In this document: piece by piece, positions 8,610 through 17,722 of the stretch
Layout of the letters: each line of letters starts with the position of its first letter
Numbering within the stretch: position 1 is the first letter of the stretch
Made by a program: the position numbers and the translations under genes
The notes under the pieces: model-generated
Told to the model about the DNA's origin: nothing
Seen by the model: the letters and a program-made list of their open reading frames with translations, nothing else
Databases searched by the model: none
IMG/VR virus record: IMGVR_UViG_2695420708_000013
Coordinates: 1-17,722 of that record
DNA: 17,722 nt
Source: a virus
Lineage: Duplodnaviria; Heunggongvirae; Uroviricota; Caudoviricetes
Reading direction: 5' to 3' (one strand)

Positions 8610-8855
8610 TTTCTAGGCTTCCACCACCAGCACGACAAGATGCCGCATACAGTGACCCAGTCAGTCCAGTTTTCAGACAACCAGTGCGTCACCTTTTTGA
8701 AGGCGCTTTAAAGCACGTTTTAATCCAGGTCGGCCTGTCCTTGTTCCGCTTAATTTATCTTCAAATATTTGTTCATATCCTGCACAAACAAGAGCGTTTC
8801 GTTGCAGGTCTGTATTCTGGTCATTTGTTGATACCCTTACATAGCCAATCAGCAC
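8610..8855 (-). pseudogene. Decayed second copy of the serine invertase (N-terminal ~60 codons intact, then stops)
   Basis: ORF 8673..8873 encodes LIGYVRVSTNDQNTDLQRNALVCAGYEQIFEDKLSGTRTGRPGLKRALKRLQKGDALVV then TGA; further downstream reads KLD*LGHCMRHLVVLVVEA*, recognisably related to KLDRLGRSMKHLISLVGEL of the intact copy. Confidence 0.7.
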
Positions 8856-8961
8856 GCTGAATCTCCCGTCCAAAAGCGCAAATCATGCCATGCAGGCCGG
8901 AAACGGCCATTATCTAAAACCTCGGTTTACAGGAAACGGTAAACAAGGCTGGTAACGCCGT
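8666..8961. repeat. Direct repeat copy B (~296 bp) of the invertase 5' end plus crossover site
   Basis: See copy A; same orientation. Confidence 0.85.
8910..8935. other. Invertase crossover site, copy R1 (boundary of the invertible fibre segment)
   Basis: Identical 26-mer to 7711..7736; the alternative fibre reading frame runs straight through it (..[12 protein letters not shown]..). Confidence 0.78.
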
Positions 8962-9823
8962 TCAGCGTTCCGGCGATAAAATGACCGGAGAACTGAAAAT
9001 TGGCACGGTGAATGCGCTGCGAATTTTCAATGATACCTTCGGTCTAATTTTCCGTCGTTCAGAAGATTTTCTTCATTTCATTCCGACGGCTGAAGGACAA
9101 GGCGAAAACGGTAATATCGGCCCATTAAGGCCATTCGCTATAAATCTGAGAACAGGTGCTATATCTGTCAGCCACGGGGCCAAAATTAAAGGAGGTCTAG
9201 CTATTGGAGCTACTGATAACGCACTGGGTGAAAACTCCATTGTTCTGGGAGATAACGACACCGGATTTAGGCAAGATGGAGATGGTATTATTAGCTTCTA
9301 TTCAAATGGTTCGCGCATCGGACATATTGATGAGTTAGGATTACATCTTTATAAAGATATTGAATCTAATGGCAGCAATTTTAGATTAAAAAGTAATTAC
9401 CGCCACCACATTACATTCGCCAACGAAGACGGAAGAATTCGTATGTTTTTGTGGAAAGATAACGGTGGTGATGGTGTTCATATTAATAACGGTTCAGATG
9501 GTGGTGGTGATTTCATTTTTAAAACAGATGGGGGATTTGCGCTGGGAAGTGGTGCGCAAGTTGCGTCTAGTGGCGATATTTATGGTTCAGTGTGGGAAAA
9601 CAACTGGTTAAGCACATGGCTGCATAATCATGTCGTTCGGGATATTCGTCTTGGCAGCATTGAATATAAAAACGTATGGCGCGACTACGGCTTTGGCGAT
9701 GCGTCAGGTTATGTTTTAACAGCCGCAATTAACAGCAATGCGGATGATATTGTCGACACTGTTGCCAGAAGGCCAATTCAGAAATTGATTGGGGGAATAT
9801 GGTACAACGTGGGGAGTGTTTAA
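8936..9823 (+). CDS. Alternative tail-fibre C-terminal cassette (Hv'), silent in this orientation
   Basis: Frame is open from the crossover site ([20 protein letters not shown], then the ORF-track start M at 8981); no SD of its own; ends ...[15 protein letters not shown] like P2 gpH; Gly-rich beta-rich body typical of fibre tips. Confidence 0.75.
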
Positions 9824-9824
9824 G

Positions 9825-10352
9825 ATGATGCACCTGAAAAATATTAAGGCCGGGAATCCGAAAACACCGGAACAATACCAGCTAACTAAAAAAGCGGGCG
9901 TGGTATGGCTCTTTTGCGAAGATGGCAAAAACTGGTATGAGGAACAAAAGAATTTTCAGCCAGACACCATAAAAATTGCTTACGATGAGAACAACATCAT
10001 CGTTGCTGTCAGTAAAGACGTTTCAACTATTAATCCTGAAGGGCTAAGCATAGTTGAAGTTCCTGATATTACGGCAAATCGTCACGCAGACAATAACGGA
10101 AAATGGATGTTTCTGGATGGTAAAGTAGTAAAGAGGGAATATACAGAACAGGAACTGCAACAACAGGCCGAATCACAAAAGGCCGCATTGCTTTCCGAAG
10201 CTGAATCAGTCATCCAGCCGCTGGAACGCGCTGTCAGGCTGAATATGGCAACAGACGAGGAACGCACACGACTGGAAGCATGGGAACGCTACAGTGTTCT
10301 GGTCAGCCGTGTGGATACGGCAAATCCTGAATGGCCACAAAAGCCTGAATAA
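9825..10352 (+). CDS. Alternative tail-fibre assembly chaperone (gpG/Tfa-like), partner of Hv'
   Basis: Starts [14 protein letters not shown] 1 nt after the Hv' stop, with GGGGAG SD; paralogous to the opposite-strand tfa ([14 protein letters not shown]...PEQPE). ORF-track start 9789 is an upstream extension. Confidence 0.85.
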
Positions 10353-10357
10353 AAATT

Positions 10358-10377
10358 AAGGCCCGATAGCGGGCCTT
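10358..10377. terminator. Bidirectional hairpin between the two convergent fibre-assembly genes
   Basis: GGCCCG-ATAG-CGGGCC stem-loop flanked by A/T runs on both sides. Confidence 0.5.
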
Positions 10378-10380
10378 CTC

Positions 10381-10914
10381 TCATTCTGGTTGTTCGGGAA
10401 ACGTTACTGGCAGGCTGGAGGTGTCTGTGGATTCGACCTTCTGCGCATAGAGCATCCACTCGGTTAATTTTTGTTTATTCTCATCGGAAATGATGCCCAG
10501 CTGTAGCTGAGAGTCCCACAGCTGGGTTTTATCCCTGACGAGCTGCAGCAGGCTCTGCTTTTCATTTTCCGCTTGTTGCCTTTGCTCTTCCTCGGTATAA
10601 GTTCGCTTTATCACCGCACCATCTTTGAACATCCAGTTGCCCGAAATATCAGCCCGGCGATTTGCTGTAATATCAGGCAACTCAACGACACTTAAACCTT
10701 CTGGATTAATTGCTGATACATCCTTGTCTATAGCAATAATTATTCCCTCAACTGTGTAAGCCAGTTTTATTGTATCCTCCTGAAAGTTTTTTAATTCCTC
10801 ATGCCAATTTTTTCCATCTTCGGACCATAACCAGATAACATCAAAATTCTTTGTTAGCTGGTATTGTTCAACGGTTTTTGGATTACCTGCGACAATGTTT
10901 TTTAAATGCTGCAT
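10381..10914 (-). CDS. G: Tail-fibre assembly chaperone (P2 gpG-like), partner of the currently expressed fibre tip
   Basis: 177-aa ORF; N-terminal 100 aa conserved with the + strand paralog, C-terminal half divergent, as expected for fibre-specific chaperones. Confidence 0.88.
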
Positions 10915-10916
10915 GA

Positions 10917-11066
10917 TTATACCTGCGATACGTTATACCATGTTCCGTTAATTAACTTTTGTATTGGTCTGAATACTGCCGGATCATCACCATCGACTTC
11001 ACCGATAATACCAAGCCCCGTGATTACATGGCCTGATTTTTCATACATCACGCCTTTCTTCATGGT
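10917..11066 (-). other. Orphaned last 50 codons of the expressed fibre gene, separated from it by an in-frame TAG
   Basis: Reverse-complement translation in H frame: [49 protein letters not shown], matching the conserved P2 gpH C-terminal end as I recall it; stop TAA 2 nt before the tfa ATG. Confidence 0.65.
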
Positions 11067-12857
11067 CTAAACAACTCGTGTGCCAAGTCTGACATCTCTC
11101 ACATAGCGGGAATCAAAGTTACCGTAATCCGAGGGATTAACACGTCCCGTAATATTTATGGTTTTATTACTTTGAATGCTTCCGGAGACAAAGCGCATAA
11201 CATGGACGTTATTAGCATAAACATCCAGATTACCATCGCCTTTTTGTTTAAAGCCCGTGTCATTATCACCCAATACAATCGAATTACCGCCAAGAGCACT
11301 GGATGTTCCGATACCCAGTGCACCATTCAGTTGACCACCAGATAACGGCAGTGCACCAACATCTCCTGCTGAAGGTTTTCTGGTGGTGTAAAATTCGGAC
11401 CAGTCGGCTTCAAAACCATAACCATCACGGGCTGAACGATAAAAAATACCGCCATTTTTATAATTAATCCGAAACTGAGCTGCAGGACAACTTCCTTCTC
11501 CCATATAAAAATGAATAATTAACGTTGATGCACCACTAATAGTTGCGTTATAGGCTCCGCTACTCCAGTTCCATCCAACTGCTTTATCATTCGCAACGGT
11601 GCTTCCTGTTTTCCCTAAGGCAAACGCACCAACATGACTTGCTTTTAATGTGATATCGGAGGAACCATCAAAAGCCACATTGCTTATTTTCCTGGCAGTT
11701 TTTAATTTTGCAGCTGTAGAAGCATTGCCGGATAGTTCACCAGAAAGGCCACCGCTGAATGTTTGTCGATTAGTCCAGGTATTCGCTGTACTGAGTAACG
11801 GTATTTTCTCCCCGCTTGTGCCGAGTTCTCGTAAACCGAGGTATTCGATAACGGCAGCAACGGTCGATTTCGCAAGAATATCCCGCCCGACTTTTGTCAG
11901 GGTTGCCAGGCTGGCGACATCATTCCCCGTAAAATACGGAAACTTGCCTGCCGCAGTAGTAAGTCCGGCCAGCGCCGTCAGGGTGGCATCTTTCGGTTGC
12001 TTACCCGCAAGCGCGTTAGTCATGGTGGTCGCAAAATTCGGGTCGTTGCCCAGCGCCGCCGCCAGCTCGTTCAGTGTGTTCAGTGCATCAGGCGAAGAGT
12101 CTACAAGTGCGGCAATCGCAGCCATAACGAAAGCCGTGCTTGCGATTTGGGTATTATTCGTTCCCTGTCGCGCAGTTGGTGTTGTTGGCGTTCCGGTCAG
12201 TGCAGGACTATTTAAGGGCGCTTTCTTGTTCGTTTCACCCATTACCGCCTTAACCGCTTTTGGCGTTGCCGCCAGTGACTCGGAAGTGCTGTTGGTCGCA
12301 CTGCTGAGCTGTACTATCCCCTTTTTCGTCGTGCTCGCATCCTCCAGCGCCACGGCGGATGCAATATCCTCTGCCCGTTTTGCTGCTGTCTCGGCGCGCG
12401 TTGCCGCGGATTCAGCAGCAACTTTGCTCTGAGATGCAGCCGTCGCACTGCCTGCCGCCTCTGATGCTTTCGTTGTTGCTGTCGTGGCACTACCTTTCGC
12501 TGCTGACGCTTGTCTGGTCGCCTCATCTTTTGAAGCAGACGCAGATGATGCCGATGACGCCGCTGAACTGGCTGACGATGCGGCTGCTGCCTTAGAGGAA
12601 GCAGCATTGTCTGCTGAAGTCTTTGCATTTGTTTCAGAGGTTTTTGCTGCAGAAGCAGACCTCGCTGCTGCAGTGGCTTGCTCAGTGGCTTTGCCAGCCT
12701 TCGTTGTGGCTGTTGAAGCGGATGATGCGGCGCTTTCTGCCGATTTTCCGGCGGCGGTGGCACTGGCTGAGGCCTGCCCGGCACTTGTTGACGCGGCACT
12801 GGCAGATAATGCAGCCGCTGTTTTTGAACCTGCCGCAGAGTGGCATCTTTCGGTTGC
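11067..12857 (-). CDS. H: Tail fibre gpH-like, Ala/Ser/Thr-rich middle region plus variable C-terminal part (frame B)
   Basis: My own translation shows this frame open from 12857 to the TAG at 11067, reading Ala-rich repeats (..AAKTSETNAKTSADNAASSKAAAASS..) into KAPLNSPALTGTPTTPTARQGT...IEYLGLRELGTSGEK... The ORF track only reports it from an internal GTG at 12353. Confidence 0.7.
   Translation of the reverse strand, partial: ATERCHSAAGSKTAAALSASAASTSAGQASASATAAGKSAESAASSASTATTKAGKATEQATAAARSASAAKTSETNAKTSADNAASSKAAAASSASSAASSASSASASKDEATRQASAAKGSATTATTKASEAAGSATAASQSKVAAESAATRAETAAKRAEDIASAVALEDASTTKKGIVQLSSATNSTSESLAATPKAVKAVMGETNKKAPLNSPALTGTPTTPTARQGTNNTQIASTAFVMAAIAALVDSSPDALNTLNELAAALGNDPNFATTMTNALAGKQPKDATLTALAGLTTAAGKFPYFTGNDVASLATLTKVGRDILAKSTVAAVIEYLGLRELGTSGEKIPLLSTANTWTNRQTFSGGLSGELSGNASTAAKLKTARKISNVAFDGSSDITLKASHVGAFALGKTGSTVANDKAVGWNWSSGAYNATISGASTLIIHFYMGEGSCPAAQFRINYKNGGIFYRSARDGYGFEADWSEFYTTRKPSAGDVGALPLSGGQLNGALGIGTSSALGGNSIVLGDNDTGFKQKGDGNLDVYANNVHVMRFVSGSIQSNKTINITGRVNPSDYGNFDSRYVRDVRLGTRVV
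11826..11851. other. Invertase crossover site L, inverted relative to 7711 and 8910, inside gene H
   Basis: TTCTCGTAAACC-GA-GGTATTCGATAA; core GA is the complement of TC; encodes IEYLGLRE at the constant/variable junction of H. Confidence 0.78.
11983..12345. repeat. Internal direct repeat in H, copy 2 (~0.36 kb)
   Basis: Aligns to 12840..13200 at offset 857; both copies encode KAPLNSPALTGTPTTPTARQGTNNTQIASTAFVMAAIAALVDSSPDALNTLNELAAALGNDPNFATTMTNALAGKQPKDATL. Confidence 0.8.
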
Positions 12858-13708
12858 TTACCCGCAAGCGCGTTAGTCATGGTGGTCGCAAAATTCGGGT
12901 CGTTGCCCAGCGCCGCAGCCAGCTCGTTCAGCGTGTTCAGTGCATCAGGTGACGAATCTACAAGGGCGGCAATCGCAGCCATAACGAAAGCCGTGCTTGC
13001 GATTTGGGTATTATTCGTTCCCTGTCGCGCAGTTGGTGTTGTTGGCGTTCCGGTCAGTGCCGGGCTGTTTAATGGGGCTTTCTTGTTCGTTTCATCCATT
13101 ACTGCCTTAACGGCTTTTGGTGTCGCTGCCAGCGTTTCAGACGTGCTGTTGGTGGCGTTGCTGAGCTGGACAAGGCCTTTTGCGGTCAGCGAGGCGTCCG
13201 GGTGACGTCGTGACTGTTCATGCTCTTTCAGTTTGTCATCCACGTAATTCACTGTGGCCATCACCATGGTGTTATCCACGGTAAGCGCCACAGTGGCAGT
13301 GCTGGATACGGTCAGAATGGTGCGAAATGTTTGTGCACGTCCGGATCCTTCGGCAACGGTTGGCTTGTAACTTTCGGCAGTATTGCCTACCGCGATCAAA
13401 TCGCCGTGCTCATCAAACACACCAATTTCCCGGATCCAGAATCCGCCCGTTTCAGGAGGAATAACCAGCTCCGCAATAATGTGGTTCTGATGTGTTGCGT
13501 CCAGGGTGACGCGATTAACGGTATGTCGCCACACCTCATGCACAAGACGGGTCTGCTTACTGTCTGGCGTGGGTAAAGTACCGCCGCCGTCACCCACGGC
13601 CATATGTGTCAGGCGGACAGGTTTCCCATCTGGCGCGGTTGCCTGCGCTAATTTTTTTGCACCCGTATCGGTGATAATGGTTTTAAATTTTCGTGTTGTG
13701 GTACTCAT
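12836..13708 (-). CDS. H: Tail fibre gpH-like, N-terminal conserved part (frame A)
   Basis: MSTTTRKFKTIITDTGAKKLAQA...ELVIPPETGGFW...HEQSRRHPDASLTAKG... resembles P2 gpH N-terminus. After ...KQPKDATL the same frame continues as Gln/Arg/Pro-rich text to 12314, which I interpret as out-of-frame. Confidence 0.8.
12840..13200. repeat. Internal direct repeat in H, copy 1
   Basis: See copy 2. Confidence 0.8.
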
Positions 13709-13710
13709 GC

Positions 13711-14241
13711 TTAATCGTCCGGATAAATGGTAATGACTTCACCGTCGTAAGTTGCTGCTGCCGCGAAAATATCTCCCTGAATCTCCTGAATGATATTCAG
13801 CCCTGTCATGTGGCGGCTGACCGGGCGGGCATCAGCAATCAACCGCTCCATTTCCAGATACATTTCCTCCGTCACGCCACTGTCCAGCGTGCCAACATCA
13901 ATCTTGAATGTTCCGGGTTCGCCGTTGAACTCCCACCACTCAGACACGCGAATGAGGTATCCCAGCGGCTCAATGGCCCGTCGCAGGGCGCTGATGGTTC
14001 CTTTGTGTCGGTGTATCAGCCATGCATCACGAATCACCTGTCGCTTTGTCTCTTCCGGCCAGTTGCGATCCCAGCGGTCAACGGAAAACGCCCAGGCGAG
14101 ATAAGGCAGCAGATGCACCGGGCAGGTGTCCGGCGACCACAGCGTGTTGAGGTCTGCCGGAATGTCTGTAATGCGTGTTCCGACGGCTTCGGCACAACGC
14201 ATGAAATTGCTGGCTGATGGTGGTAACAGTGAATTACTCAT
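13711..14241 (-). CDS. I: Baseplate protein gpI-like
   Basis: WSPDTCPVHLLPYLAWAFSVDRWD and EMERLIADARPVSRH motifs; start ATG 14239-14241 (MSNSLLPP) just upstream of the J stop; ORF-track start 14274 is an extension. Confidence 0.87.
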   Translation of the reverse strand: MSNSLLPPSASNFMRCAEAVGTRITDIPADLNTLWSPDTCPVHLLPYLAWAFSVDRWDRNWPEETKRQVIRDAWLIHRHKGTISALRRAIEPLGYLIRVSEWWEFNGEPGTFKIDVGTLDSGVTEEMYLEMERLIADARPVSRHMTGLNIIQEIQGDIFAAAATYDGEVITIYPDD

Positions 14242-15130
14242 TACGCCCACCTTCGCTGATGGTGAATGACTCACAGCGCGCCGCCTGTATGTCGCTGATG
14301 GCCATATTCTGTGTGGGTTCGATTATCTCCACGCGTTGCACACCGTGCACATGCAGTGCGGCAGCAATGGCGGACAACGCCACGTCCTGACCGATAAGCC
14401 CCTGCTCAGCCAGCCACTTCCTGAACGACGATTCAGCCGCAGCCAGAATAGGTTCGGATTCCGGACCGGGGTAAAAGTACAGTTTTGCATTCAGCCGCCA
14501 TGTCACGATTCTGGCACTCTGTACGGTCAGGCGGTCGGCCACCGGGCGGGTATCCTCTGCATTCAGAACGGCGCGAACGGTATTAAGCAACGCCTCCGTT
14601 GCTGTGCCGTCGCCCTCAGTGGACAGGATGGAAACCGTCACATTTGCCGGAGACGGACTGATGGCCCGCGCATCGCGCACCAGACCGCTGGCGCTGCGGG
14701 CAAAATACTCGTATGCGCCTGACGGGCCTGCAACACTCAGGCCGTCATACGCCCGCTGCGCCCGCAGTCTCAGCGAGGTGTCGTTCTCCATCACCACGTC
14801 GGTGGTATCCGTTGCCGGAGTGATAACCAGGCGCTTTGTGTTCATATTGCCCGCGAGGTTGTCCAGGTCTGTTCCGGCGCTGTGGCTCAACATGCAGGCG
14901 CGTGCGGCCTCATTGACCCGCTGGCGTAACAGCATTTCACGAAACGACATGGTTTGAGCGATAACGTTCAGGGGTTCCGATTCCAGTTCCAGTGCGGCGG
15001 AGACGACTTCACGCTGTTCGGCGGGATAAGCTGCAATCATCATGGCCTTTGTGTCAGCCAGAATTGCCTCAAAGTCAGGCTCCGCGATGATGGCGGGTTC
15101 CGGTAACTGGGAAAGGTCAACGGCAGGCAT
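14234..15130 (-). CDS. J: Baseplate protein gpJ-like
   Basis: 298 aa, MPAVDLSQLPEP... N-terminus and RPVADRLTVQSA / YFYPGPESEPI motifs as in P2 gpJ. Confidence 0.9.
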   Translation of the reverse strand: MPAVDLSQLPEPAIIAEPDFEAILADTKAMMIAAYPAEQREVVSAALELESEPLNVIAQTMSFREMLLRQRVNEAARACMLSHSAGTDLDNLAGNMNTKRLVITPATDTTDVVMENDTSLRLRAQRAYDGLSVAGPSGAYEYFARSASGLVRDARAISPSPANVTVSILSTEGDGTATEALLNTVRAVLNAEDTRPVADRLTVQSARIVTWRLNAKLYFYPGPESEPILAAAESSFRKWLAEQGLIGQDVALSAIAAALHVHGVQRVEIIEPTQNMAISDIQAARCESFTISEGGRNE

Positions 15131-15133
15131 GAT

Positions 15134-15484
15134 TTACTCCCTCAGCGTGATGGTTAATTCAACATTCTGCATGGTCTGCATGACAGTGCCCGACAGCGTC
15201 ACCCCGGCGTGGCCTCCTGCCTTCCAGACAACGTCGATGGCGTTCAGGGCAATGCGTGGTTCCCATCGTGTCAGTGCAATCACGGTAGCACTCATGCATT
15301 GCAGACGCGTGGTGTTATTCATGGGTTCGTCAATCAAATCAGGCACAAGGCTGCCATATTCCCGTCGCATAACCCGGCTTGCCAGCGGGGTGGTCAGGAT
15401 GTCCCTGACTGACTGTTTCAGGTGCGCCATATCGTTCAGGTTTCCCGTCCCGTCCGGGTTCATTCCTGTGTAGCGGGTTGTCAC
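15134..15484 (-). CDS. W: Baseplate wedge protein gpW-like
   Basis: 116 aa, MTTRYTGMN..., gp25/W-like; overlaps gene V stop. Confidence 0.87.
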   Translation of the reverse strand: MTTRYTGMNPDGTGNLNDMAHLKQSVRDILTTPLASRVMRREYGSLVPDLIDEPMNNTTRLQCMSATVIALTRWEPRIALNAIDVVWKAGGHAGVTLSGTVMQTMQNVELTITLRE

Positions 15485-16062
15485 TGCGGGCCTCCTGTCG
15501 AATCGCTGCCACCTTTAACGCCACCGTGCTTATGCGTATGCACTGTGATGCCGTTTGAGGTGAAATCGCCGCCGCTGTGCGTGATATTGCCGCTCATCGT
15601 TCCCCCTTTTGTGACGTCAAGCGTCGCTGTTCTCAGAAGGTCTGTGCATTCCACGACAGGCGTGTTCAGTGTCACGCTGATGGATGCCTGCAAAGTGGCC
15701 GTTTTCATGCCGCTTGCGCTCAGTGCGCCTGCGTCCGCGTCGTAGCGGAACACCGCGCCGTCCGGCGCGCTGACCACGATTTCTTTCAGGCTTTTGCCGG
15801 GTGCCGGAATGGCATCACTCCACAGGCTGCCGATTATCATGGCGGTTTCCGGGTTGCCGCCGATGCAGGCAATTGCCACCTGTTCGCCTGGTGATGGCGG
15901 AAACCACACGTTGAAGTCTCCCGCGCGCGTGGTGTTCCAGCGCAGCCAGCCTGTTTCCAGTTCGCCGCTGCGAACGCGCACGCACCAGGATTCCTCATCA
16001 ACTTCAGAGATGATCCCGGTGCGGATGATATTGCTCAGCAGTCGCATGAGTTCTGCGCTCAT
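15481..16062 (-). CDS. V: Baseplate spike/assembly protein gpV-like
   Basis: 193 aa; C-terminal GGTMSGNITHSGGDFTSNGITVHTHKHGG motif characteristic of P2 gpV. Confidence 0.87.
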   Translation of the reverse strand: MSAELMRLLSNIIRTGIISEVDEESWCVRVRSGELETGWLRWNTTRAGDFNVWFPPSPGEQVAIACIGGNPETAMIIGSLWSDAIPAPGKSLKEIVVSAPDGAVFRYDADAGALSASGMKTATLQASISVTLNTPVVECTDLLRTATLDVTKGGTMSGNITHSGGDFTSNGITVHTHKHGGVKGGSDSTGGPQ

Positions 16063-16694
16063 CGTACAGCCTCCGCAATCCGGCCCAGCACCGTGTTATA
16101 AATCAGGCGCTCATCTGCCTGGCTGATACCCAGCAGCTCACGTACCGGGTAATCGGTGAAAATGCCCGGCGCAACCTGATCGCGCTCACCGAACTGATGA
16201 ACGCGTGCAATACGTGCGGCCACGCCGCTGTAACCCACCGTCACACCGGAAGCATCTGCACGGGCTTTCAGGTAGCGGGCGGTGCGCAGTTTTACGAACA
16301 TGGAGACGCGCCTGGTGCTGTCCTGGTTGATGCGCCGGGTGCGTATTTCCAGAAAACGGTCGATGTCATCCCGGTAAAACGTGCGGATATTGTTTTTATC
16401 CTCATCCCACCCGGTGATGGTTCGCCCGTATTTCCCCGTGTCGTGATGCCAGTTTTTCAGCGTGCGTGCTTCGTTATTCCAGATAAAGCGAATGCGCTCC
16501 TGTATCCGGGTTACGCGGCGTCTGCGTGGTGTCCATGCGGTCCCGTCCGGCGCTTTCTGTGACCGGATACGCGCCTGCTGGGCGCGGCGTAAATCCTGTG
16601 CCAGCTTTCTGGCGATGTTATTAATGGCCTGCTGATTCAGGCTGTCGCGGATAGCCTCAAAGGTTTCATCCACGCGGGTGAATGCCTTATCCAT
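16059..16694 (-). CDS. S: Tail completion / virion morphogenesis protein, gpS-like with an internal insertion
   Basis: C-terminal ARIARVHQFGERD...RELLGIS motif of the gpS family; about 60 residues longer than P2 gpS as I recall it. Confidence 0.7.
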   Translation of the reverse strand: MDKAFTRVDETFEAIRDSLNQQAINNIARKLAQDLRRAQQARIRSQKAPDGTAWTPRRRRVTRIQERIRFIWNNEARTLKNWHHDTGKYGRTITGWDEDKNNIRTFYRDDIDRFLEIRTRRINQDSTRRVSMFVKLRTARYLKARADASGVTVGYSGVAARIARVHQFGERDQVAPGIFTDYPVRELLGISQADERLIYNTVLGRIAEAVR

Positions 16695-17154
16695 CGCTTT
16701 CCCCCCACGTCACATCCTGGAATACATGCGACCAGTCGCCTTCGGAAGAGGGCAGGCGGGGTTTTGGCTCCGGCAGGTGTTCTGCCTGCGGTGTGCCCTG
16801 ACTGCTGCGCGTGATGCGAACGCGTTCCCGCAGGGGGAGCGTAAACAGGAGATCGGCGCTGTCATCGTCATTGATAACGGCGGAAAATTTGATGTCCTGA
16901 TTACGCTCCGGATTGAGCAACAACTGTGGCTGATTTTCGGATAACCACGCCAGCAGCGGCAGCGTGAGGTCGTCCAGCTCTCCGGCGTAATCCATGACAA
17001 ACATCACTATCTGATAGCGGTAAACAAACGATGGGGTTTCTCCGGTCGTTTCAATGTTGCCGCTCTCCACGAAAATGGTGAATTTTTCCGGGTTGGCATG
17101 ACACCACCGGCATGAACGGGTCATGGCTTCACGCAGGGAATCAGTTTTCAGCAT
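16687..17154 (-). CDS. R: Tail completion protein gpR-like
   Basis: 155 aa, MLKTDSLREAM... resembles P2 gpR; 4-nt overlap arrangement with neighbours. Confidence 0.85.
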   Translation of the reverse strand: MLKTDSLREAMTRSCRWCHANPEKFTIFVESGNIETTGETPSFVYRYQIVMFVMDYAGELDDLTLPLLAWLSENQPQLLLNPERNQDIKFSAVINDDDSADLLFTLPLRERVRITRSSQGTPQAEHLPEPKPRLPSSEGDWSHVFQDVTWGESDG

Positions 17155-17431
17155 GGTTGTTGTCCTCGTTGTTCAGTCGTTGCAGCCTGCGCTGTTCCAG
17201 TAATTCAATGGCCCGCTTATCGGCGTTACAGGTTTCCAGTGCGTCCATGAGGCTGTCGCTCCATATCCCGATGTTTCCCCATGATGGCGTCACCGGAAAC
17301 GGCGGGGGAAGTACGGGGGCGGTCAGCCCTTCCGGGATGAAACGGAACGACGGCGGCGGCGCGGACGCGTTCTGCGTGCTGGTGCAACCGCTCAGTAAAG
17401 CGAGCGTCAGGAACAGCGCGGGCACATGCAT
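17141..17431 (-). CDS. lysC: Rz1-like outer-membrane lipoprotein spanin (P2 LysC-like)
   Basis: Starts MHVPALFLTLALLSGC (signal peptide plus lipobox LSGC), Pro-rich mature part; begins inside lysB in another frame and runs past its end. ORF-track start 17461 is an extension. Confidence 0.6.
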   Translation of the reverse strand: MHVPALFLTLALLSGCTSTQNASAPPPSFRFIPEGLTAPVLPPPFPVTPSWGNIGIWSDSLMDALETCNADKRAIELLEQRRLQRLNNEDNNHAEN

Positions 17432-17678
17432 CTGTCGTGATATCGTTGCGTAGCTGTTCACGTCGGATTTCCCCTTCCTGTTGTCGGTTCTGGCGCGCTG
17501 TCATGACGTCACGCAGTACACCGGATGCGGTGCTGATGATGGTGCCGGCCTCTTTCAGGGTCCGGCTGTAATCGTCCAGTTGCGCCTGTGTATAACGGTT
17601 GTGTCCGTCTTCCTGCCCCAGTCTGAATGTCTGCCAGAGTGTTATGGTCAGCAGCGTGAGGACGGTCAGTGCCATCAT
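17226..17678 (-). CDS. lysB: Rz-like inner-membrane spanin (P2 LysB-like)
   Basis: N-terminal hydrophobic segment ALTVLTLLTITLW followed by charged, helix-prone periplasmic region; overlaps the lipoprotein ORF. Confidence 0.62.
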   Translation of the reverse strand: MMALTVLTLLTITLWQTFRLGQEDGHNRYTQAQLDDYSRTLKEAGTIISTASGVLRDVMTARQNRQQEGEIRREQLRNDITTDACARAVPDARFTERLHQHAERVRAAAVVPFHPGRADRPRTSPAVSGDAIMGKHRDMERQPHGRTGNL

Positions 17679-17722
17679 CAGGATGAGGTAGCCTGAGTTT
17701 AACGGACACTCCTTCCTGAAAT

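Follow-up and report, generated by a model that had tools for sequence, protein, structure and literature searches.

Duplicated shaft module and Ala-rich segment in the tail-fibre gene of a draft P2-like prophage contig: probable assembly chimera of two prophage fibre regions

P2-type and lambda-type fibre genes have been known for decades to exchange shaft modules, and the tail fibres of P2, Mu, P1 and lambda are reportedly mosaics whose shaft modules have been exchanged horizontally. The window presented here, which is the entire 17,722-nt contig CXAP01000091.1 of the short-read draft assembly GCA_001260795.1, resembles such mosaics in that it bears the module common to P2-type H and lambda-type Stf (...QLSSATNSTSETLAATPKAVK...KAPLNSPALTG...KQPKDATL), and the two repeat copies of its H gene rest on the homology of this conserved module. 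It also resembles the lambda Stf-type fibre, represented by the 934-aa stf of prophage L001 in Escherichia coli NCTC86, with which the 517-nt Ala-rich segment, copy B and the C-terminal part align colinearly at 95.8% DNA identity. Unlike that fibre, the window lacks the Stf N-terminal domain PF08400, which the lambdoid loci L001 and L006 do have, as well as about 60% of the Ala-rich region, and its C-terminus is truncated by an amber codon.

Both flanks of the window are of P2-like origin. Positions 1,814-7,762 are 100.000% and positions 12,832-17,685 are 99.8% identical to the P2-like prophage of CP026802.1, which is Shigella sonnei ATCC 29930 (PMC9430107). Eight complete or near-complete relatives harbor an intact H of 656 or 678 aa from which the Ala-rich part is absent, and a continuous H of 656-744 aa was seen across the relatives examined. 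The element in the window is already degenerate: gpD is interrupted by an in-frame stop, the fibre by an amber codon, and the contig edge carries the end of an IS. Between the flanks lies a block that is colinear and ungapped with a lambdoid prophage located elsewhere in the complete genome CP041511.1 (Table 1). This block contains a methyltransferase cassette, an invertase remnant, an alternative fibre end, two tail-fibre assembly genes, the fibre C-terminal part, copy B and part of the Ala-rich region. The insert of about 0.5 kb described in the first-pass annotation is thus actually the margin of a 5,076-nt side-tail-fibre/invertible-region block. Copy B, the Ala-rich stretch and the C-terminal part are 99.7% identical to the lambdoid prophage of CP041511.1. 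ORF2 is recorded only once for GCA_001260795.1; the assembly therefore has one copy of the 5-kb block, which a simple mislocation of the lambdoid copy would predict.

Table 1. Location of the repeats, ORFs, segments and junctions in the window (positions count from the first letter of the contig).
Feature	Position	Strand	Description
Repeat a1	7466..7762	+	297 nt; 5' end of intact invertase gene and gix-like crossover site at 7718-7738
Left junction	7762..7763	+	P2-like ...GGTAACGCCGT / ATTCATCGCC... methyltransferase cassette
Lambdoid-type block	7763..12838	.	5,076 nt; colinear and ungapped with CP041511.1 lambdoid prophage, 99.72%
Repeat a2	8665..8961	+	297 nt; invertase remnant and gix-like site at 8917-8937
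ORF2	11067..12856	-	Ala-rich tail, copy B and fibre C-terminal part
Repeat copy B	11974..12314	-	Within lambdoid stf-derived ORF2
ORF1	12314..13708	-	464 aa; P2-type H N-terminus, PF12571 and PF03406 repeat
Ala/Ser/Thr/Lys-rich segment	12315..12831	-	Lambda-Stf-type fibre, AAGSKTAAALSASAAS...AEDIASAVALEDASTTKKG; 517 nt, one frame
Repeat copy A	12832..13171	-	Joined to P2-like H N-terminal part
Right junction	12836..12839	-	Gene sense: P2-like ...GATGCCACT CTG / CGGCAGGTTCAAAAAC... lambdoid
Native P2-like H, 3' sequence			...CTGACGGCGCTGGCGGGGCTTGC...

A repeat search of the window returned 300 nt at 93% identity with a spacing of 857 nt, far above chance, and with self-BLAST the repeat grew to 340/341 nt (91.8% identity, a single indel at the edge), confirming that the block noted before as 0.36 kb is present twice. 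Both copies lie on the minus strand, as does the fibre gene, and encode ...QLS(N/S)ATNSTSE(T/S)LAATPKAVKAVM(D/G)ETNKKAPLNSPALTG...KQPKDATL. The Ala/Ser/Thr/Lys-rich spacer, estimated before at about 490 bp, is as described, with a length of 517 nt. The reported decay of identity from the 3' toward the 5' ends also holds in gene sense, with 35 differences in the 5' ~135 nt versus seven in the 3' ~225 nt, the latter stretch holding two exact runs (95 and 77 nt). On paper the repeat is a valid deletion substrate, since recombination between copies A and B removes 857 nt and leaves an in-frame H. Copy A and the N-terminal PF12571 domain belong to the P2-like H gene, while copy B, the Ala-rich stretch and the C-terminal part belong to the lambda-Stf-type gene. 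The idea of domain shuffling between fibre genes therefore stands as far as descent of the copies from two different fibre genes is concerned; a functional shuffle does not, the junction being out of frame with CTG as the only microhomology.

Three features are missing from the first-pass annotation, namely a frame change, an amber stop in ORF2 and a second direct repeat. Relative to copy A, the Ala-rich segment is read in the -1 frame, and H is consequently split into two ORFs. ORF1 has a P2 gpH-type N-terminal part, with PF12571 at residues 6-152 (E-value = 5.5e-55) and PF03406 at residues 173-213, and continues after KDATL as about 170 aa of out-of-frame, P/Q/R-rich nonsense. The frame of ORF2 is open from 12,856, its first start codon is a GTG at 12,353 (428 aa), and an amber stop at 11,067-11,069 (CAG to TAG) ends it 50 codons early. 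It matches the frame of the L001 stf along the Ala-rich shaft (...ALEDASTTKKGIVQLSSATNSTSE...) and the C-terminal part, as in an Stf-type fibre. The N-terminal domain and the receptor-binding C-terminus are not encoded by a single ORF, owing to the frame change at 12,838/12,839 and the amber codon, and this is not a working mosaic H gene, as H is split and its second ORF is start-less and prematurely stopped. The RefSeq annotation of NCTC86 suggests a frameshift in the donor stf, but this is ruled out, as stf there is an intact single ORF of 934 aa.

The other end of the lambdoid block is marked by the direct repeat a1/a2. Repeat a1 is 100% the S. sonnei P2-like allele, while a2 has lambdoid alleles over its first 111 nt and P2 alleles at 8,878, 8,899 and 8,905. 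The context is a Gin/Cin/Pin/Hin-type invertible segment, which bears an intact serine invertase (7,069-7,656; PF00239 plus HTH_7) and gix-like crossover sites, two of them within the repeats and one near 11,823-11,846, and the relatives carry two H C-termini (656 versus 678 aa). The left junction, however, lies 25 nt past a site, and about 1 kb separates the right one from any site. With both junctions outside the crossover cores, they are not the work of the invertase, and site-specific recombination by it is ruled out.

At the right junction CTG alone is common to both sides, 1-4 nt beyond the 77-nt exact run (S2). At the left one the microhomology is 0-2 nt, and the P2 side is the last base of a multi-copy 56-nt inverted-repeat arm of the invertible segment. 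The P2-side positions of both junctions are branch points of an assembly graph. This coincidence of breakpoint and repeat end is confined to the P2 sides; on the lambdoid sides the breakpoints lie away from repeat ends. In-register homologous recombination between H and stf is ruled out, since only a single copy of the shared block would then remain and the frame would be unchanged. A natural module boundary of the methyltransferase cassette at 7,763 is likewise ruled out, as the homology extends upstream in L006 as well as in L024. An origin in two steps, in which an in-frame join at the 9-nt microhomology CTGCGGCAG was followed by the loss of 25 nt, is possible on paper but less parsimonious.

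Informative SNPs were also phased against both parental prophages. Copy A carries P2-prophage alleles at 34 of 35 sites between 13,196 and 13,061, lambdoid alleles at six sites between 12,965 and 12,917, and the P2 allele again at 12,839. Copy B is its mirror image, being lambdoid, then P2 at six sites (12,108-12,060), then lambdoid, and the six SNPs reciprocally swapped between the copies are bounded by the 95-nt and 77-nt exact runs. The lambdoid block has 14 mismatches to CP041511.1, 12 of which cluster inside the repeats: six in copy B are the exact P2-prophage alleles, three in a2 are P2 alleles, and three where the methyltransferase cassette begins agree with a third genomic copy of it. 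Taken alone, the swap proves mis-phasing within the repeat, not the falsity of the larger arrangement. The reservation made in the first-pass annotation, an assembly duplication, is vindicated in that an artefact is best supported; a simple duplication of one sequence is ruled out, since 27 positions distinguish the copies and each copy is predominantly of one parental type.

Among 153 billion indexed gene positions, the junction-bearing ORF1 was recorded for CXAP01000091.1 only. The right junction was not found among 5,426 complete E. coli genomes, GTDB species representatives, IMG/VR or JGI metagenomes, nor was it spanned by any protein fragment among 5.8 billion clusters; the left junction was not found in the complete E. 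coli genomes. The structure is thus limited to one assembly and conflicts with the finished genomes of its lineage, as a misjoin would. Sibling draft contigs at the lambdoid locus, one of them labelled S. sonnei, bear differing block duplications and inversions in seven of eight cases, and their breaks fall inside the two stretches shared between the prophages, "a" (the 297-nt repeat) and "b" (the conserved fibre shaft), and the Ala-rich region. All 14 sibling misjoins are marked by N (13 by a single N, one by a run of 24). The window holds zero N, both of its joins included, and thus does not show the mark of a scaffold join.

Considering these data, the duplicated block and the Ala-rich "insert" are probably a chimeric contig and not the chromosomal structure of the isolate. 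Such an artefact is best supported by the single short-read contig, the swapped alleles, the P2-side junctions at repeat ends and the occurrence of the junctions in no other genome. S. sonnei harbors two prophages whose tail-fibre regions are homologous and switched by an invertase: a P2/P88-like one, in which H is intact, and a lambdoid one, whose stf bears the Ala-rich region and the amber stop. Near-identical between them are "a", with the invertase 5' end and the crossover site, and "b", of ~340-484 nt. A lambdoid contig reaching from the methyltransferase to part of the Ala-rich region appears to have been set between two P2-prophage contigs ending at "a" and "b", the variants within the repeats being then arbitrarily phased. 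The outcome would be a doubling of both "a" and "b", an out-of-frame join, and loss from the contig of the P2 prophage's own 3.2-kb fibre segment. The data show directly the parentage of each segment, the swapped alleles, where the junctions lie and that the collections searched hold neither of them; from these we infer that software made the joins, at the scaffolding or gap-closure stage, rather than an event in the cell. Against a chimera count the N-free joins and a microhomology (CTG, or 0-2 nt) that is also typical of genuine illegitimate recombination.

These same points would suit a real event private to one isolate, in which a 5.1-kb lambdoid piece took the place of 3.2 kb of P2-like prophage DNA by way of two illegitimate joins at the level of microhomology (0-3 nt), for instance by replication template switching or end joining. 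The contig is continuous through both junctions, and a dead, out-of-frame H pseudogene would not be out of place in a prophage already decaying. Homologous stretches would be duplicated at both ends and their SNPs then mis-phased by the short-read assembler, which would explain the allele swap in a true duplication. We nevertheless consider this unlikely. It takes two non-homologous joins and, on their P2 sides, a chance match of one breakpoint with the last base of an inverted repeat and of the other with a point at most 4 nt from the end of an exact run; no known mechanism predicts these breakpoints. For a short-read contig to run through it, the block must also be single-copy and thus have left the lambdoid prophage. 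The arrangement is, moreover, absent from every other S. sonnei or E. coli genome searched. That the structure is both real and functional, giving a fibre with a P2 N-terminus, an Ala-rich shaft and a lambdoid tip through -1 slippage, or with the direct repeat serving as an on/off switch by RecA-mediated deletion of 857 nt, appears very improbable. The -1 frame is open for 540 nt past the junction, a CAA-AAA-C run just beyond it could let a Lys-tRNA re-pair in -1, and deletion between the copies restores an in-frame ORF. However, the long open -1 frame is intrinsic to the Ala-rich repeat, with the same alternative-frame ORF in the intact L001 stf, the amber stop still cuts the last 50 residues, and the junction is conserved in no other genome. 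Programmed -1 ribosomal frameshifting finds no support, as the overlap holds only A5 runs, without a canonical X XXY YYZ heptamer, and the junction is in no relative. Fainter still is the prospect of a genuine join whose broken H is expressed as a three-part fibre (P2 baseplate-binding head, lambda-type Ala-rich shaft, lambdoid tip) by CAAAAAC slippage plus amber suppression or by recombination at the 340-nt repeat; if true, it would be a cryptic, switchable host-range variant.

The biological weight of the locus is small, since the exchange is long known and this instance is out of frame, carries an extra stop and occurs on one draft contig. Its value lies rather in what it says of draft genomes, where tail-fibre and invertible regions with exact stretches of 50-500 nt across several prophages per genome trap short-read assemblies, and apparent "mosaic" or "duplicated" fibre genes should be compared with finished genomes and with reads before they are called recombination footprints. 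A phase map of informative SNPs against both parental prophages is a quick, read-free test for such chimeras. Compared with repeat-induced misassembly of short-read drafts, the window differs in that its joins are without N while the sibling misjoins have it; it agrees with such misassembly in the one-contig structure, the P2-side breakpoints at repeat ends, the swapped or collapsed alleles and the sibling misjoins at the same locus. Natural fibre mosaics, in contrast, are in frame, hold one copy of the module and recur, whereas the arrangement in the window is out of frame, duplicated and seen once.

The tail-fibre gene H, encoded on the minus strand, contains a direct repeat that a repeat search of the window placed at 300 nt (93% identity, spacing of 857 nt) and that self-BLAST extended to 340/341 nt with 91.8% identity. 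Both members, copies A and B, encode the conserved shaft module ...QLS(N/S)ATNSTSE..LAATPKAVKAVM.ETNKKAPLNSPALTG...KQPKDATL and are separated by 517 nt with Ala/Ser/Thr/Lys-rich coding content. Read in gene sense, identity between the copies rises from low at the 5′ end to very high at the 3′ end, where two stretches, of 95 and 77 nt, match exactly. The first-pass annotation had described the two-copy block, the Ala-rich stretch between the copies and the gradient decaying toward the 5′ end; these observations are confirmed, and the repeat is real in the sequence and not due to chance.

Past the KQPKDATL end of copy A, the H frame continues into approximately 170 codons of P/Q/R-rich nonsense before its stop at w12314, and the Ala-rich sequence lies in the -1 frame relative to it; H is therefore split in two ORFs. 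ORF2 is terminated 50 codons early by an amber codon, as compared with the otherwise identical sequence of E. coli NCTC86, and the 50 codons past the amber are still identical to that strain. This is a real, lineage-wide lesion, because the truncated 428-aa product, amber included, is found on 11 contigs, the complete genome CP041511.1 among them. Wherever the upstream region is visible in these contigs, the window excepted, ORF2 lies in a lambdoid prophage. As a whole, the structure is neither an intact P2 gpH-type fibre nor a complete lambda Stf-type fibre. There is no support for a programmed -1 frameshift, since the 540-nt overlap contains no X XXY YYZ heptamer, only A5 runs; the long open alternative frame is intrinsic to the Ala-rich repeat and is also present in intact stf. 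The suggestion that the repeat is a substrate for deletion is formally right, as recombination between copies A and B would delete 857 nt and put H back in frame, with 594 codons ahead of the amber stop.

Positions of the features discussed (w, window coordinate)
Feature	Position	Strand	Remarks
Repeat copy A	w12832-13171	minus	self-BLAST
Repeat copy B	w11974-12314	minus	self-BLAST
ORF1	w13708-12314	minus	464 aa; Pfam PF12571 + PF03406
ORF2	frame open from w12856; first start codon GTG at w12353	minus	reading-frame analysis
ORF2 amber codon	w11067-11069	minus	CAG -> TAG
Repeat a1 / a2	w7466-7762 / w8665-8961		297 nt
Methyltransferase cassette	w7806-8474		class I, SAM-dependent
gix-like crossover sites, invertase-proximal	w7718-7738, w8917-8937		same strand
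gix-like crossover site, in fibre gene	about w11823-11846	minus	
P2-like segment	w1814-7762		S. sonnei ATCC 29930, CP026802.1; 100.000%
Lambdoid block	w7763-12838		5,076 nt; CP041511.1; 99.72%, ungapped
P2-like segment	w12832-17685		S. sonnei ATCC 29930; 99.8%
FI-FII-E-T-U tail module	w1458-7033		
gpD	w191-1432		
gpD in-frame stop	w926-928	minus	Trp in relative L019
IS3-family IS end	w17684-17722		39 nt

The window is the tail region of a P2/P88-like prophage (FI, FII, E, T, U, serine invertase, invertible fibre segment, H, I, J, W, V, S, and R). Among complete genomes, its best matches are the P2-like prophage of S. sonnei ATCC 29930 (strain name according to PMC9430107) and, for the lambdoid block, a prophage in CP041511.1, where J, lom and an stf N-terminus disrupted by an IS lie upstream of the block. 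The block consists of a class I methyltransferase cassette, a remnant of an invertase and an alternative fibre end, together with two genes for tail-fibre assembly, the C-terminal part of the fibre, copy B and some of the Ala-rich shaft. What had been taken for a 0.5-kb insert is a mere edge of this 5.1-kb block; at the opposite edge lies another direct repeat, a (invertase 5′ end and crossover site), which flanks the methyltransferase cassette. The cassette between a1 and a2 measures 902 nt; it is also found beside ipaHe, a T3SS effector gene, in EIEC CFSAN029787 (locus L024, 3044-3712), which makes it a prophage-remnant module present in several copies in Shigella/EIEC.

At the right junction, in gene sense, P2-like GATGCCACTCTG meets lambdoid CGGCAGGTTCAAAAAC with only CTG in common, and at the left junction P2-like GGTAACGCCGT meets ATTCATCGCC with 0-2 nt in common. 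The P2 side of the left junction is the very last base of a 56-nt inverted-repeat arm common to all copies, and that of the right junction lies 1-4 nt past the 77-nt exact run common to both fibre genes. Neither junction coincides with the core of a gix-like crossover site, and therefore the invertase did not make them. The site inside the fibre gene (ATACCTCGGTTTACGAGAACTCGG) differs in subtype from the invertase-proximal pair (AAACCTCGGTTTACAGGAAACGG), the core ACCTCGGTTTAC being their sole common part.

The window spans the whole of contig CXAP01000091.1 (17,722 nt), which belongs to draft assembly GCA_001260795.1, and ORF1 is recorded for this contig only. The right junction was not found in 5,426 complete E. 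coli genomes, GTDB species representatives, IMG/VR or JGI metagenomes, nor were protein fragments spanning it, and the left junction was not found in complete E. coli genomes. H is intact in eight complete or near-complete Shigella genomes with identical gpI (656 or 678 aa, representing two inversion states), and in none of the eight does it contain the Ala-rich part.

The most telling result on whether the structure is real is a phase map, in which sites distinguishing the two parental prophages were read across copies A and B. In the 5′ part (35 informative sites), copy A carries P2 alleles at 34/35 and copy B lambdoid alleles; past the 95-nt run, identical in both, the next six sites are lambdoid in copy A and P2 in copy B; and past the 77-nt run, again identical, the last site before the junction has the P2 allele in copy A and the lambdoid one in copy B. 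The loci compared bear this swap out: the 54-nt allele of copy B is that of 8/8 P2-type loci, and copy A's version is that of all lambdoid loci. Repeat a2 has P2 alleles at three sites past a 100-nt exact run, and within the methyltransferase cassette the opening 63 nt agree in their alleles with a third genomic copy, of the type beside ipaH in an EIEC genome; both patterns point the same way as the swap between copies A and B. Reciprocal swaps or collapses bounded by exact runs of approximately read length are the output of a k-mer graph assembler unable to phase repeat copies; to arise in a cell, they would take several additional double crossovers, each very short.

We consider the fibre-gene structure, which shows most of the testable marks of a misjoin, to be probably an assembly chimera. 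Seven of eight sibling contigs over the lambdoid locus (L008-L015, one named S. sonnei by its source) present differing block duplications and inversions, with breaks inside repeat a, the shaft repeat b and the Ala-rich region. These large rearrangements sit around the lambdoid stf and invertible region and were created by N-marked scaffold joins; this locus looks like a systematic assembly problem. However, all sibling misjoins are N-marked (a single N in 13 cases, a run of 24 in the other), whereas the window is free of N; true illegitimate recombination normally also leaves short microhomology, and an artefact would call for a software step that abuts contigs silently. A genuine private rearrangement is nevertheless the less likely reading, as it needs two non-homologous joins, with their P2 sides at repeat ends by coincidence, and breakpoints predicted by no known mechanism. 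It also requires cut-and-paste of the 5-kb block, because a short-read contig would have been broken by a two-copy block, and GCA_001260795.1 has a single record of ORF2. Most probably the feature is not real; were it real, it would be ordinary, the outcome still being a dead gene in a decaying prophage.

The prophage is called decaying on account of the gpD in-frame stop, the fibre amber codon and the IS at the contig end; the gpD stop is another sign of a degenerating P2-like element. The IS end abuts the P2-like lysis region, is found at this position in 0/8 complete or near-complete relatives, and may reflect either an insertion specific to this isolate or a further misjoin. Compared with the canonical order of P2 genes, the tail module FI-FII-E-T-U is inverted (w1458-7033 against w13711-17154), with gpD on the opposite strand, a layout common to E. 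coli relatives (L002-L004) and P88-like phages.

Concerning the donor of the Ala-rich block, the suspicion of a side-tail-fibre gene proved correct. E. coli NCTC86 has the same architecture as the lambdoid block of CP041511.1, but with an intact Stf (934 aa), and therefore the donor is a lambda-Stf-type gene. In RefSeq, the stf of NCTC86 is divided into a pseudogene fragment and a separate tail fibre CDS; its DNA is one uninterrupted 934-aa ORF (L001, 6018-8822). The proposed domain shuffling is partly supported, as regards donor and homology. Sharing and exchange of the shaft module among the fibre genes of P2, Mu, P1 and lambda is classical knowledge, reportedly described by Haggard-Ljungquist et al. 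(1992) and Sandmeier et al. (1992).
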